The notes under the pieces: generated by a model
Seen by the model: the letters and a program-made list of their open reading frames with translations, nothing else
Told to the model about the DNA's origin: nothing
The model's database searches: none
Origin: Escherichia phage P694
Sequence record: NC_028863.1
Reading direction: 5' to 3' (one strand)
DNA: 40,477 nucleotides
In this document: positions 12,910 through 16,159 of the stretch, one piece after another
Layout: the number at the start of each line of letters is the position of its first letter
How positions within the stretch are numbered: position 1 is the stretch's first letter
Made by a program: the position numbers and the translations under genes

Positions 12910-12990
12910 ATGCTATTTCTAATTGTTGCTATCATTGTTGCCACGTTTGCCCTCGTTATCATTGACGACAACTGCTGGCCTGATTGCTAA
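12910..12990 (+). CDS. Small hydrophobic peptide (26 aa; gene 1.4 position)
   Basis: MLFLIVAIIVATFALVIIDDNCWPDC; GGAGGA RBS 9 nt upstream. Confidence 0.4.
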   Translation: MLFLIVAIIVATFALVIIDDNCWPDC

Positions 12991-13010
12991 TACGACTCAC
13001 ATATGGAGGA
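12988..13010 (+). promoter_or_regulatory. Phage-promoter-like sequence overlapping the RBS of the next gene
   Basis: TAATACGACTCACATATGGAGGA. Confidence 0.45.
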
Positions 13011-13017
13011 CACAACT

Positions 13018-13242
13018 ATGTTAAGACTTCACTTCAACAAATCTAATGGCATATTCTCTGCTCGTGGCTCTGACCGTTCTACGGTGCTGGCCTCTGAGAA
13101 ACATGCAGTCATCCCTAAAGTGCTTGGTTCGATCATTGAGTTAGCACCCCGTGTTCACGCTGTGATTACGACTGGCTTATATAAAGAAGCGACCACTGGC
13201 TCCCGGCCTTTCATCCCGGGTTCTCGTCACGCGTTTCCCTAA
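13018..13242 (+). CDS. Hypothetical protein (gene 1.5/1.6 position)
   Basis: 74 aa from ATG 13018 with GGAGGA RBS at spacing 7; the upstream ATG 13003 has no RBS. Confidence 0.55.
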   Translation: MLRLHFNKSNGIFSARGSDRSTVLASEKHAVIPKVLGSIIELAPRVHAVITTGLYKEATTGSRPFIPGSRHAFP

Positions 13243-13281
13243 AGTCCGTCTGGTCATTGCACGTATCAAGGAGGTGCTCTA

Positions 13282-13791
13282 ATGTCACGTAACACAGGAA
13301 GATGTGATAGCACCACGTACTGTGAAGCATGTAATGGTGACGACCGCTATCCGCATGTTGGTAAGCCAATAGTTAACAAACCACAAGATAAAGAGGGTGT
13401 TCTAATGGGACTGTTAGATGGTGCAGCTTGGGAAAAAGAAAACCCGCCAGTACGAGCAACTGGGTGTATAGCTTGCTTAGAGAATGATGACCGCTACCCA
13501 CACACTTGCCCACAACATGTTGGTAAGCCAATAGTTAACAAACCACAAGATATAGAGGGTGTTCGGACTCCGAGCCACTATATGTTGTTTGATGACATTG
13601 AGGCTATCGAAGTGATTGCCCGGTCGATGACCCGCGAACAGTTCAAAGGGTACTGCTTAGGGAACATCCTTAAGTACCGCCTCCGTGCTGGTAAGAAATC
13701 CGAACTGGCATTCTTAGAGAAGGACATGGCGAAAGCTGGGTTCTACGGTGAACTGTACGAGAAACATAAGGACAAGTGCTATGATTATTAA
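13282..13791 (+). CDS. 1.7: gp1.7-like nucleotide kinase with an N-terminal in-frame duplication
   Basis: 169 aa; residues 42 onward (MGLLDGAAWEKENPP...CIACLENDDRYPHTC...) match the T7 gp1.7 N-terminus as recalled, and the C-terminus (...KGYCLGNILKYRLRAGKKSELA...) matches too; alternative start ATG 13405 also has an RBS. Confidence 0.8.
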   Translation: MSRNTGRCDSTTYCEACNGDDRYPHVGKPIVNKPQDKEGVLMGLLDGAAWEKENPPVRATGCIACLENDDRYPHTCPQHVGKPIVNKPQDIEGVRTPSHYMLFDDIEAIEVIARSMTREQFKGYCLGNILKYRLRAGKKSELAFLEKDMAKAGFYGELYEKHKDKCYDY

Positions 13792-13954
13792 GGTCGAGTA
13801 TGTGGGTGAAGATGATATGATGGCACTAGTTAAACGCCATGACATATTCTTTGCAGAGCGAACATGGGACGGTAAGTTCTATAAGATCATGAACAAGCAT
13901 GACGAAGAAGTATATCTTTCACGTAACGAGGTGATTGAATATGACGATGCTTAA
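13781..13954 (+). CDS. Hypothetical small protein (gene 1.8 position)
   Basis: 57 aa from ATG 13781 (AAGGA upstream), overlapping the gene 1.7 stop. Confidence 0.5.
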   Translation: MIIKVEYVGEDDMMALVKRHDIFFAERTWDGKFYKIMNKHDEEVYLSRNEVIEYDDA

Positions 13955-14045
13955 ACCTAGCGAATGGTGTGAGCGTATGTTTGAAAAGACAGGCAACACC
14001 GACTATCTTGAATTATACAATCAGTGGAAGGAGAGAGGACAATGA
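13941..14045 (+). CDS. Hypothetical small ORF (34 aa) bridging the gene 1.8-like ORF and gene 2
   Basis: ATG 13941 with GAGGTGA RBS; its stop overlaps the gene 2 ATG (ATGA). Confidence 0.3.
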
Positions 14046-14233
14046 GCAATTTAAACAAAGGGTCACTGGTCAACGGTGACAAGAAGTTCTTCGCAACGGT
14101 AGAAGGCCAAGGCCAATCGTTCGAAGTCCCTGTGTTCGCTGTGTCTCTTGAAGAGGCCAACGAGTTAGCTGAATGGCAATATGTCCCGGCTGGCTTCGCA
14201 GTGACACGCATCCGTCCAGACCGAAAGGTTTAA
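14042..14233 (+). CDS. 2: Inhibitor of host RNA polymerase (T7 gp2-like)
   Basis: 63 aa [22 protein letters not shown]...[18 protein letters not shown], close to T7 gp2 as recalled; strong RBS. Confidence 0.88.
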
Positions 14234-14254
14234 TAGGACTCACTATTGGGGAGA
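14231..14254 (+). promoter_or_regulatory. Phage RNAP promoter (phi2.5-like)
   Basis: TAATAGGACTCACTATTGGGGAGA followed by a GGGGAGAC...GTTTCCC 5' hairpin. Confidence 0.75.
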
Positions 14255-14302
14255 CACAACGTTTCCCATTTTAACTTGCAGAAACTTCAAAGGAGAATCA
14301 TT

Positions 14303-15007
14303 ATGGCATTCGCAAAACGTAAAGTATTCACTTCCGCTCGTGGTGTTGCTGAACCTTACTGCTATCTGGCTAAACCAGACTTCGGTAGTGGTGACTTCAA
14401 GAACGAACGTGGTGTCTACAAAGTATCACTGACTGTATCCAACGATGACCCTCGCTGTCAGAAAATGATTGACGAGATTGTCGAAGCCCATGAGACGGAC
14501 TATGCTGCTCGACTTGAAGAGTACGAAGCGAACCCGCCGAAAGTTGTCAAGGGTAAGAAACCGCTGAAGCCATATGTTGGCGACATGCCTTTCATGGATA
14601 ACGAAGATGGAACCACTACGTTCAACTTCAAGTGCTATGGCTCGTTCACTGACAAGAAGACTGGTGAGAACAAACCAATCGACTTGGCTATCGTGGACTC
14701 CAAAGGTAAGCGCATCCGTGGTGAGCGCCCAGCTATCTCTGGCGGCTCTGAACTGAAGATTAAATACACTCTGTTCCCTTACGGCTGGTCTGCTGTGGCG
14801 GGTGCATCCGTTAAGCTGCAACTGGATTCCGTGATGCTGATTAAGCTGGTCGAGTTCGGTGGTGGTGATGACGATTGGGGTGATGAAATCGAAGAAGATG
14901 GCTACGAAGCTGATGAAAGCCAGACCCGTCAACGTCCCCAAAATGATTCTGGTTGGAACGAAGAACCGGAAGATGAAGGCGACGAAGATGAAGATGGCGA
15001 CTTCTAA
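14303..15007 (+). CDS. 2.5: Single-stranded DNA-binding protein with acidic C-terminal tail
   Basis: 234 aa from ATG 14303 (AAAGGAGA RBS); acidic C-terminus ...EDEGDEDEDGDF as in T7 gp2.5. Confidence 0.92.
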   Translation: MAFAKRKVFTSARGVAEPYCYLAKPDFGSGDFKNERGVYKVSLTVSNDDPRCQKMIDEIVEAHETDYAARLEEYEANPPKVVKGKKPLKPYVGDMPFMDNEDGTTTFNFKCYGSFTDKKTGENKPIDLAIVDSKGKRIRGERPAISGGSELKIKYTLFPYGWSAVAGASVKLQLDSVMLIKLVEFGGGDDDWGDEIEEDGYEADESQTRQRPQNDSGWNEEPEDEGDEDEDGDF

Positions 15008-15453
15008 TGGCTAAGGGATATGCAGGTCGGGGCACTCGTGTGGGTGCCTTTCGCTCTGGCTTGGAGGACAAGGTAAGCAAACAGCTTGAGTCAAAGAACG
15101 TTAAGTTCGACTATGAGCGCTGGCGTGTACCATATGTTGTTCCTGCAAGCAACCATACCTATTGCCCGGACTTCCTGTTACCTAATGGCATCTTTGTGGA
15201 AACCAAAGGTCTGTGGGACAGTGAGGACCGCAAGAAACACTTGCTGATTCGTGAACAGTATCCTGAACTTGATGTTCGCATCGTGTTCTCTTCAAGCCGC
15301 TCCAAGCTGTACAAAGGGTCTCCGACCAGTTACGGTGAGTGGTGCGAGAAGCATGGCATTCTGTTTGCTGACAAGTTAATTCCAGTTGATTGGCTTAAAG
15401 AGCCTTCTAAGGATGTTCCATTCGATAAATTTAAAGAGGTGAAGAAGAAATGA
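15007..15453 (+). CDS. 3: Endonuclease I (Holliday junction resolvase)
   Basis: 148 aa; VGAFRSGLEDKVSKQLESK...PASNHTY.PDFLLPNGIFVETKG as in T7 gp3. Confidence 0.92.
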   Translation: MAKGYAGRGTRVGAFRSGLEDKVSKQLESKNVKFDYERWRVPYVVPASNHTYCPDFLLPNGIFVETKGLWDSEDRKKHLLIREQYPELDVRIVFSSSRSKLYKGSPTSYGEWCEKHGILFADKLIPVDWLKEPSKDVPFDKFKEVKKK

Positions 15454-15905
15454 GTAAGGTACAATTCAAACAACGCGCTGTGACAGAAGCAATCTTTGTC
15501 CACTGTAGCGCAACTAAGGCGACCATGAATGTTGGTCTGCGTGAAATCCGTCAGTGGCATAAAGAACAGGGCTGGCTTGATGTAGGCTACCACTTCATTA
15601 TTCGACGTGATGGTACAATCGAAGAAGGCCGTCCGGTCGGAGTCGTTGGGTCTCACGTTAAGGACTGGAACAGTAAGTCAGTCGGTGTGTGTCTCGTTGG
15701 TGGCATCGACGATAAGGGCAAGTACGAAGCTAACTTTACTCCAGCGCAGATGCACTCTCTTAAAGAGAAACTTGCAGACCTGCTGGACATGTATCCAGAT
15801 GCTGAAGTGAAAGCTCACCATGACGTTGCACCTAAAGCGTGTCCGTCTTTCAACTTGAGTCGCTGGCTGAAAACTGGCGAATTAGTAACTAGTGATTGGG
15901 GTTAA
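15450..15905 (+). CDS. 3.5: Lysozyme / N-acetylmuramoyl-L-alanine amidase (also RNAP inhibitor in T7)
   Basis: 151 aa; ...AIFVHCSATK...REIRQWHKEQGWLDVGYHFII.RDGT... as in T7 gp3.5. Confidence 0.93.
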   Translation: MSKVQFKQRAVTEAIFVHCSATKATMNVGLREIRQWHKEQGWLDVGYHFIIRRDGTIEEGRPVGVVGSHVKDWNSKSVGVCLVGGIDDKGKYEANFTPAQMHSLKEKLADLLDMYPDAEVKAHHDVAPKACPSFNLSRWLKTGELVTSDWG

Positions 15906-15909
15906 TACT

Positions 15910-16002
15910 ATGATGATTATTCACGAGATGGGTCTGTACGATTTGGTTTATCGCTTGGCCTTCATGCTGGCAATGGTCTACATTCTGACCCGAAAGGATT
16001 AA
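15910..16002 (+). CDS. Small hydrophobic peptide (30 aa)
   Basis: MMIIHEMGLYDLVYRLAFMLAMVYILTRKD; sits where T7 carries gene 3.8. Confidence 0.35.
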   Translation: MMIIHEMGLYDLVYRLAFMLAMVYILTRKD

Positions 16003-16022
16003 TAGAACTCACTATGGGAGGA
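16000..16022 (+). promoter_or_regulatory. Degenerate phage-promoter-like sequence
   Basis: TAATAGAACTCACTATGGGAGGA. Confidence 0.4.
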
Positions 16023-16072
16023 CCGAAAGGTTTCTCCCTTTGTTCGCTAAAATTGTATAAGGAGTAACCACT

Positions 16073-16159
16073 ATGCGTAAGCTATTTGGTGAAGCACTTC
16101 CGGTGACACTTCTGGTCATCATCATTATTGTTTGTGGCGCACTGCGTCCGTTCCTGTAG
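16073..16159 (+). CDS. Small hydrophobic peptide (28 aa)
   Basis: [28 protein letters not shown]; AAGGAG RBS at spacing 8. Confidence 0.45.

Follow-up and report, generated by a model that had tools for sequence, protein, structure and literature searches.

The closest described counterparts of the genes considered here are small accessory genes of phages T7 and T3. One of these is T7 gene 1.5, the product of which (Gp1.5) inhibits the growth of E. coli in minimal medium, a defect relieved by stringent-like RNA polymerase alleles; in the same screen toxicity was seen for 34 of 53 T7 proteins, and Gp1.5 yielded no partner (PMC13483052). Others are T3 gene 3.7, encoding a Cys-rich hydrophilic 35-mer, T7 gene 3.8, encoding an HNH enzyme of 121 amino acids (aa), and gene 6.3 of both phages, whose products (DUF5516; phrog_11345 and phrog_5008) are 36-37 aa long, share a conserved (A/S)(R/W)GLW motif and have a basic tail at the C-terminus. 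Here we describe four very short open reading frames (ORFs), designated m1 to m4, in the genome of Escherichia phage P694 (NC_028863.1), the 40,477 nucleotides (nt) of which were analysed as a whole and are referred to below as the window. On the sequence evidence, we consider it likely that all four are genuine translated accessory genes of the Berlinvirus middle (class II, DNA-metabolism) region, each specifying a one-helix peptide of 26-30 residues with a putative mechanism at the membrane.

The window represents a circularly permuted genome of a T7-like phage of the genus Berlinvirus, and the region containing the micro-ORFs is 92-95% identical at the nucleotide level, over an aligned 87-93%, to those of the Berlinviruses A7, Kvp1, P483, BA14, 285P and PYPS50. 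The gene order is T7-like, running from ligase (1.3) through 1.6, 1.7, 2, SSB (2.5), endonuclease (3), lysozyme (3.5), primase/helicase (4) and exonuclease (6) to 6.5. Twelve phage-type promoters in the window fit a T7-like consensus, with none found in shuffled sequences, and three of them (at 12988, 16000 and 22879) flank the micro-ORFs. An earlier note on this sequence had listed the four ORFs, and all are present exactly where and as long as it had described: m1 at 12910..12990 (26 aa), m2 at 15910..16002 (30 aa), m3 at 16073..16159 (28 aa) and m4 at 22760..22843 (27 aa), each on the + strand. For comparison, 80 Studiervirinae loci anchored on lysozyme were sampled from IMG/VR, and this set was supplemented with T7, T3 and eight GenBank Berlinviruses.

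The number of such ORFs exceeds that found in randomised sequence. In 100 mononucleotide shuffles of the window, ORFs of 20-45 aa having both a Shine-Dalgarno (SD) sequence and a hydrophobic window occurred at 0.21 per strand (maximum 2), against four on the + strand and none on the - strand of the window itself when the same strict first-ATG scan was applied. A looser scan returned six on the + strand, the additional two being embedded out of frame in long genes; one more match was the gene 19.5-like ORF described below. Three of the four ORFs (m1, m3 and m4) are located in the approximately 4.4 kb that is free of long ORFs. These same three are preceded by strong SD sequences, namely GGAGGA 7 nt upstream of the ATG in m1 and AAGGAG 8 nt upstream in both m3 (16059-16064) and m4 (22746-22751), and are clear candidates for single membrane helices, having Kyte-Doolittle 19-residue maxima of 2.9, 2.4 and 2.8, respectively, and negative 17-residue Hessa-type sums. 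The m2 peptide is borderline, with a Kyte-Doolittle maximum of 1.57, a Hessa sum of about +3 to +4 and an Arg in the middle of the stretch, and is preceded by a weak GGGG only. The description of all four as single-helix-like peptides with credible ribosome-binding sites thus holds for m1, m3 and m4, and is generous for m2.

Selection was assessed by the ratio of nonsynonymous to synonymous substitution rates (dN/dS; Nei-Gojobori) and by a Fisher test for synonymous excess on the most divergent pair available for each ORF. In the annotated frames dN/dS was 0.49 for m1, 0.15 for m2, 0.21 for m3 and 0.31 for m4, and the synonymous excess was significant in each case (p = 0.002, 2e-5, 0.007 and 0.011, respectively; pooled 2e-9). 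Variable sites were distributed 29/13/35 over the three codon positions (chi-square p = 0.0065), indicating that the second position, which fixes hydrophobicity, is spared. Amino acid replacements were almost all hydrophobic-for-hydrophobic, short motifs were invariant in m1 (DD..WP.C) and m3 (LRPFL), and among intact copies in the Berlinvirus group all differences in length were in frame (12 nt in m3, and 3 nt at the ends of m2 and m4). Neither Pfam (E up to 10) nor NCBIfam (E up to 1) returned a family for any of the four peptides, so that they join no named toxin, holin or regulator family.

A structured RNA or riboswitch in place of coding sequence was considered and rejected, as no Rfam family matched anywhere in the window and the m3 region folded no better than its shuffles. 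Two further frames, 12894-12965 (MEERPH...) and 16014-16067 (MGGPKG...), were also set aside; they are conserved across relatives yet have no SD, both begin on the ATG within the promoter motif CACTATGG, and the first has a dN/dS of 0.79. These frames are probably by-products of promoter conservation and could trap naive callers of small ORFs.

The first of the four, m1, is the gene 1.5 of the T7 group itself. Its product, MLFLIVAIIVATFALVIIDDNCWPDC, matches phrog_10145 with an E-value of 2.2e-17 (all 26 residues aligned to the 26 profile positions), a family which T3 gp1.5 (NP_523306) fits as well (2.8e-16), and the homologue is annotated in Kvp1 as ‘similar to gene 1.5 protein of T3’ and named gene 1.5 in BA14 also. 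It lies 3' of the ligase gene and the early terminator and 5' of gene 1.6, enclosed by the phi1.5 and phi1.6 promoters, an arrangement found in T7, T3, Kvp1 and BA14 as in the window. The upstream promoter (12880..12902, + strand) is a divergent phi1.5-type sequence at a position homologous to the annotated phi1.5 of Kvp1 and BA14, with a predicted +1 near 12897, such that the SD of m1 would sit at the extreme 5' end of the transcript. The downstream phi1.6 promoter (12988..13010, + strand) matches the promoter pattern, corresponds to phi1.6 at the homologous site of BA14 and is arranged identically in T7; where coordinates were compared (12988-12990 of the window, T7 and BA14), the stop codon of gene 1.5 is the TAA with which phi1.6 opens.

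The m1 peptide consists of a predicted membrane helix (residues 2-18) followed by an acidic DDxxWPDC tail, in which D19, D20, W23, P24 and C26 were invariant across 10 aligned sequences. It was present in all examined Berlinvirus loci that span the region. More broadly, nearly all loci with gene 1.6 have a peptide of 24-30 residues at this site, composed of a helix of approximately 17 residues, an acidic DD(D) patch and a proline-containing end; this architecture was seen in T7-like, T3-like, Berlinvirus-like and further Studiervirinae loci of the sample, despite sequence divergence. T7 gp1.5 (NP_041965, phrog_12128) resembles m1 in its slot, its N-terminal helix of about 17 residues and its acidic DD..P(D) tail, though the tails themselves differ, being DDNCWPDC in m1 and DDDMPDGHA in T7.

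The m2 peptide, MMIIHEMGLYDLVYRLAFMLAMVYILTRKD, matches phrog_25602 at E = 1.6e-20 (residues 1-29 on a 29-position profile), and phage PYps49T has the identical sequence, deposited in GenBank as a hypothetical protein. It is also present in five records of T7-like phages (four of them distinct), such as 64795_ec1. Given that its ATG lies 4 nt past the stop codon of gene 3.5 with the weak GGGG alone in front of it, reinitiation after gene 3.5 is the likelier route to its translation. Its stop codon is the TAA that opens a phi3.8/phi4A-type promoter (16000..16022, + strand; a pattern match with one mismatch, and a promoter in the annotation of Kvp1 and BA14), the transcript of which is predicted to start with a stem-loop at 16017..16037 (GGAGGACCGAAAGGTTTCTCC). 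Being upstream of that promoter, m2 does not lie in the interval of T7 gene 3.8, where the earlier note had placed two of the ORFs; its slot is that of T3 gene 3.7, which likewise starts 4-5 nt past the stop of gene 3.5 and has as its stop codon the TAA of the promoter that follows. Position is all that the two have in common: T3 gp3.7, with a Kyte-Doolittle value of about -0.2 to -0.35, is unlike m2, and m2 gave no match to phrog_17413, whereas T3 gp3.7 matches this family at 8.7e-29. The m2 gene behaves as a clean present/absent cassette. In genomes that do not carry it, gene 3.5 is joined straight to the promoter, and where it is carried, its frame and hydrophobic profile are maintained over approximately 25% nucleotide divergence.

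The borders of the m2 cassette were compared with four loci that do not carry it (L086, L087, L089 and L090; window positions 15898-15912), and TTAATA was found at both sides (GGTTAATA/CTATGATG ... GGATTAATA/GAACTCAC). The start of the cassette, TAATACTATG, resembles a collapsed copy of the promoter motif TAATA..CTATG, which hints that the cassette may have arisen from, or been gained or lost via, promoter duplication. In Shigella phage A7 (L003 / MK685668, 29153-29245) the m2 homologue is named a ‘carbohydrate ABC transporter permease’, which is implausible for a 30-aa peptide with no family match, and the label is probably a spurious best-hit transfer.

The m3 peptide matches phrog_25193 along its entire length (E = 2.6e-22, residues 1-28 of 28), occurs as an exact sequence in GenBank from 285P, FE44 and PhiV-1, and is 85-100% identical across 50 phage records. 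It is built of a basic N-terminus, a predicted membrane helix at residues 8-24 and the invariant LRPFL end; none of its second codon positions were variable, and the copies of L005 and PC127 contain an in-frame duplication of 12 nt. It is the only micro-ORF in the position of T7 gene 3.8, between the promoter and gene 4. T7 gp3.8 is unlike either m2 or m3, and no HNH nuclease domain was found in these peptides, which are 28-30 aa long and have no Pfam match. Furthermore, HNH ORFs of approximately 120 aa occur as separate genes alongside membrane-helix micro-ORFs within the same interval in three loci (L044, L048 and L016), from which we infer that the HNH gene is an independent mobile insertion and not an alternative occupant. 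The notion that the micro-ORFs stand in place of T7 accessory genes is thus at best partly right: m3 does lie in the gene 3.8 slot, but m1 is gene 1.5 itself, and m4 lies in the gene 6.3 slot.

At the junction of m3 with gene 4 (16157..16172, + strand), the SD of gene 4, TAGGAG, includes the m3 stop codon TAG, and the gene 4 ATG follows at 16170 (gene 4 was assigned by homology). Since the two signals overlap, ribosomes ending m3 would be delivered to the start of the primase/helicase gene, and m3 probably serves additionally to couple translation to gene 4. The RNA around m3, over a 184-nt region, was not unusually structured (z = -0.04). An arrest-peptide reading of m3, with its helix and LRPFL stop acting in the manner of SecM or MifM, was discarded, as a 28-residue chain cannot leave the ribosomal tunnel before termination. 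Kinship of m3 with micro-ORFs located 5' of gene 4 in distant loci (the MxNLKEHF... family) is not claimed, the similarity being weak and confined to the N-terminus (hhalign P = 0.002, probability 14%).

In Pectobacterium phage PcCB251 (L086, MW367418), an extra hydrophobic ORF of 27 aa (MSLLLLFVTSYALYALVVLFMTDKLGA) was observed at approximately 3550-3632, exactly between the m3 stop/SD and the ATG of gene 4, in a stretch which the record labels as belonging to primase/helicase. The ORF matched no PHROG, a nucleotide search of 50,697 phage records returned no relative, and it is a candidate very young micro-gene.

In Berlinvirus the gene 6.3 slot is filled by m4, which encodes MVAGTVAFVAFAIVAFAIVWAAFITTL and whose homologue in BA14 is named gp6.3. 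The 3'-terminal 28 nt of the exonuclease gene 6 (stop at 22785-22787) are shared with m4, and the peptide has no charged residues. Downstream, at the end of the middle-gene block, there is a phi6.5-type promoter (22879..22901, + strand; a pattern match with one mismatch) in a layout identical to that of T7 and T3. In these respects m4 is like gene 6.3 of T7 and T3, which likewise begins within the 3' end of gene 6, preceded by AAGGAG, ends before phi6.5 and encodes a single hydrophobic helix; it differs in being shorter, at 27 aa, and uncharged. Homology between m4 and the gp6.3 proteins was rejected, as m4 did not match DUF5516 at E-values up to 10, whereas T7 gp6.3 (2e-15) and T3 gp6.3 (1.4e-17) did, and the hhalign comparison gave P = 0.24. 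No match to m4 was found in PHROG or Pfam. A tblastn search also returned no match, possibly due to low-complexity filtering of a query rich in Ala, Val and Phe, and a nucleotide search gave 50 records instead.

None of the four micro-ORFs is new, and they are already annotated in relatives. The curated annotation of BA14 covers all of them, as gp1.5, two coding sequences of ‘unknown product’ and gp6.3; m1, m2 and m3 have full-length matches (E = 1e-17 to 1e-22) to PHROGs of unknown function, and GenBank holds m2 and m3 as exact proteins and m4 as a close variant. The absence of conservation in related phages, which the earlier note had proposed as grounds for abandoning the prediction, is not what was found: nucleotide matches were retrieved from 50 phage records for the m3 region, 50 for the m4 region and 39 for m2, and m1 was present in all Berlinvirus loci that cover it. 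The four ORFs are probably translated into small peptides. The earlier suggestion that they escape ORF calling is borne out, as the majority of records matching m2, m3 and m4 have no feature over these ORFs, showing that annotation pipelines usually drop them. No function assignment for these micro-protein families was found in database records or the literature, and nothing relevant was found in the literature on ribosome profiling or proteomics of these genes.

The peptides are no longer than the stretch of nascent chain, about 30-40 residues, that is held in the ribosomal exit tunnel, and so would be released before the helix emerges. Insertion into the inner membrane of the host would then be post-translational, whether spontaneous or via YidC, and the peptides would there bind or perturb host membrane components and in this way adjust host physiology during phage DNA replication, while being dispensable in standard hosts. 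Bacterial small membrane proteins and type I toxins such as TisB, Ibs, ShoB, AcrZ and MgrB bind larger membrane proteins or depolarise the membrane. The m1 to m4 peptides resemble these in size (approximately 20-50 aa) and in having a single hydrophobic helix, a likeness suited to functional speculation only; unlike type I toxins, they have no evident antisense RNA or antitoxin partner. A phage precedent is offered by Gp11 of a Staphylococcus phage, which is described as a small membrane protein that blocks a host process (PMC11237401).

Three other explanations for the micro-ORFs were weighed against their being genuine accessory genes, and the substitution pattern and the conservation of motifs place each of them lower. 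What matters might be translation itself: the ORFs would then be short leader or coupling frames, handing ribosomes on to the following gene or protecting the mRNA, with the peptide as a by-product. The arrangement of the genes lends itself to this, in that the gene 4 SD (TAGGAG) contains the m3 stop at a distance of 10 nt from the ATG, the start of m2 is 4 nt past the lysozyme stop, m4 starts inside gene 6, and in other genera the last micro-ORF of the interval between genes 3.5 and 4 ends approximately 8 nt before the inferred start of gene 4. The peptide sequences, however, are conserved beyond the edges of the frames (dN/dS of 0.15-0.49, spared second positions, and the LRPFL and DD..WPDC motifs), genomes that do not carry m2 run gene 3.5 directly into the promoter, T3 and several T7-like phages manage without any ORF between the promoter and gene 4, and the RNA at the junction of m3 and gene 4 is not unusual in its folding. 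We thus regard a role in translation alone as unlikely.

That the peptides are young and effectively neutral products of T-rich promoter-side spacers, hydrophobic by composition and merely tolerated, is a very unlikely account of all four. The m1, m2 and m3 genes are indeed T-rich (33-38% T versus 25% for the genome), and turnover in the slots is fast, as illustrated by the presence or absence of m2, the loss of m4 in L014 and its degradation in PcCB251, the extra ORF of PcCB251 and the many unrelated families; for m2 and m4, whose turnover is high, weak selection or a young origin is still a live possibility. Set against this are the significant synonymous excess in four of four ORFs, the 85-100% identity of m3 in 50 records, the retention of the gene 1.5 architecture across the genus-level groups sampled, and the persistence of the m2 frame and hydrophobic profile at approximately 25% nucleotide divergence. 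Least probable of all, and in our view hardly credible, is that the ORFs are not genes but chance frames in spacers that are conserved for other, non-coding reasons (the spacing of promoters, RNA processing sites or the early terminator, for instance). Two of the ORFs do stop on the TAA of the next promoter, and ATGs embedded in promoters do create conserved spurious frames (12894-12965 and 16014-16067). Yet m1, m3 and m4 have strong SDs at ideal spacing where shuffles give 0.2 such ORFs per strand, substitutions are three-periodic with an excess of synonymous changes, there is no Rfam match or unusual fold, and the spacers diverge faster than the flanking genes while the frame is kept; the substitution pattern has already largely refuted this explanation.

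Several observations weigh against the interpretation of the four ORFs as translated accessory genes for membrane peptides. Translation, membrane location and phenotype of the Berlinvirus peptides are predicted from sequence alone, and the selection p-values are approximate, as the sequences compared were few and related. The dN/dS of m1 is modest (0.49) and one alternative frame gives a lower value (0.26), which weakens the test, although this is expected when first-position swaps among I, V, L and F dominate. As to T7 gp1.5, m1 gave no direct match to phrog_12128, the T7 gp1.5 family, and profile-profile comparison (hhalign; P = 4e-4, probability 34%) is only suggestive of homology between the Berlinvirus/T3-type and T7-type proteins. 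Moreover, the toxicity of T7 Gp1.5 is non-specific in an assay in which 34 of 53 T7 proteins were toxic. The m2 peptide is a borderline candidate, for a membrane or an amphipathic helix, has no proper SD, and is missing from 8 of 21 examined relatives. Gene 6 also constrains the first 28 nt of m4, and the m4 frame has been lost in L014 (a deletion plus a stop at codon 4) and degraded in PcCB251 (a GTG start and a truncated frame). Any function of m2 and m4 must therefore be dispensable.

Across the 80 loci, three junctions of the middle region, located after the ligase gene and terminator, between genes 3.5 and 4, and after gene 6, hold 5, 11 and 6 mutually unrelated clusters, respectively, of SD-preceded micro-ORFs of 18-45 aa, most of which are membrane-helix-like. 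The occurrence of unrelated clusters at the same junctions, together with the extra ORF of PcCB251, suggests that the slots are conserved while their occupants turn over. It is conceivable, and we put it forward only tentatively, that the three junctions are dedicated slots of the Studiervirinae which have been repeatedly and independently refilled by unrelated single-helix membrane peptides. Both the m2 cassette common to Berlinvirus and T7-like phages and the unique peptide of PcCB251 bear on this proposal.

Some features of other genes in the window were also observed. Gene 1.6 (13018-13285) contains an extra G near 13218, a 1-nt insertion giving CCCGGG where Kvp1, BA14 and L004 have CCGG, which shifts the frame to yield 74 aa versus the 87 aa of relatives, whose stop overlaps the ATG of gene 1.7; this may reflect a genuine frameshift or an error in sequencing a homopolymer. 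Gene 1.7 (13282-13791) contains a 49-nt direct repeat (13354-13402 and 13516-13564), 98% identical, 162 nt apart and in frame, that duplicates the N-terminal Cys-rich segment of the nucleotide kinase (..DDRYPH..VGKPIVNKPQD.EGV occurs twice), and its product is 169 aa long versus 97-155 aa as annotated in several relatives. A fifth small hydrophobic ORF, absent from the earlier note, is located at 3616-3771 (51 aa; AGGAG SD; phrog_2193, unknown function), downstream of a 586-aa ORF (1588-3348) taken as the large terminase by its size and position. By position alone, this fifth ORF is probably an analogue of gene 19.5.

The finding is an ordinary one that would not surprise a T7 specialist. Its value for annotation is that a length cutoff drops four real genes, including gene 1.5, as has occurred in most deposited Berlinvirus genomes. 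The combination of purifying selection, conserved slots with sequence turnover, and the lead provided by T7 Gp1.5 toxicity makes these ORFs reasonable and cheap targets for work on small membrane proteins of phages. Should the junctions prove to be slots that are independently refilled, one of two implications would follow: either tiny membrane peptides meet a general and unrecognised need during phage DNA replication, such as the disarming of membrane-anchored host defences or the tuning of membrane energetics or of the stringent response, or promoter-flanked spacers act as gene nurseries, in which new membrane-peptide genes would be born and later come under selection.

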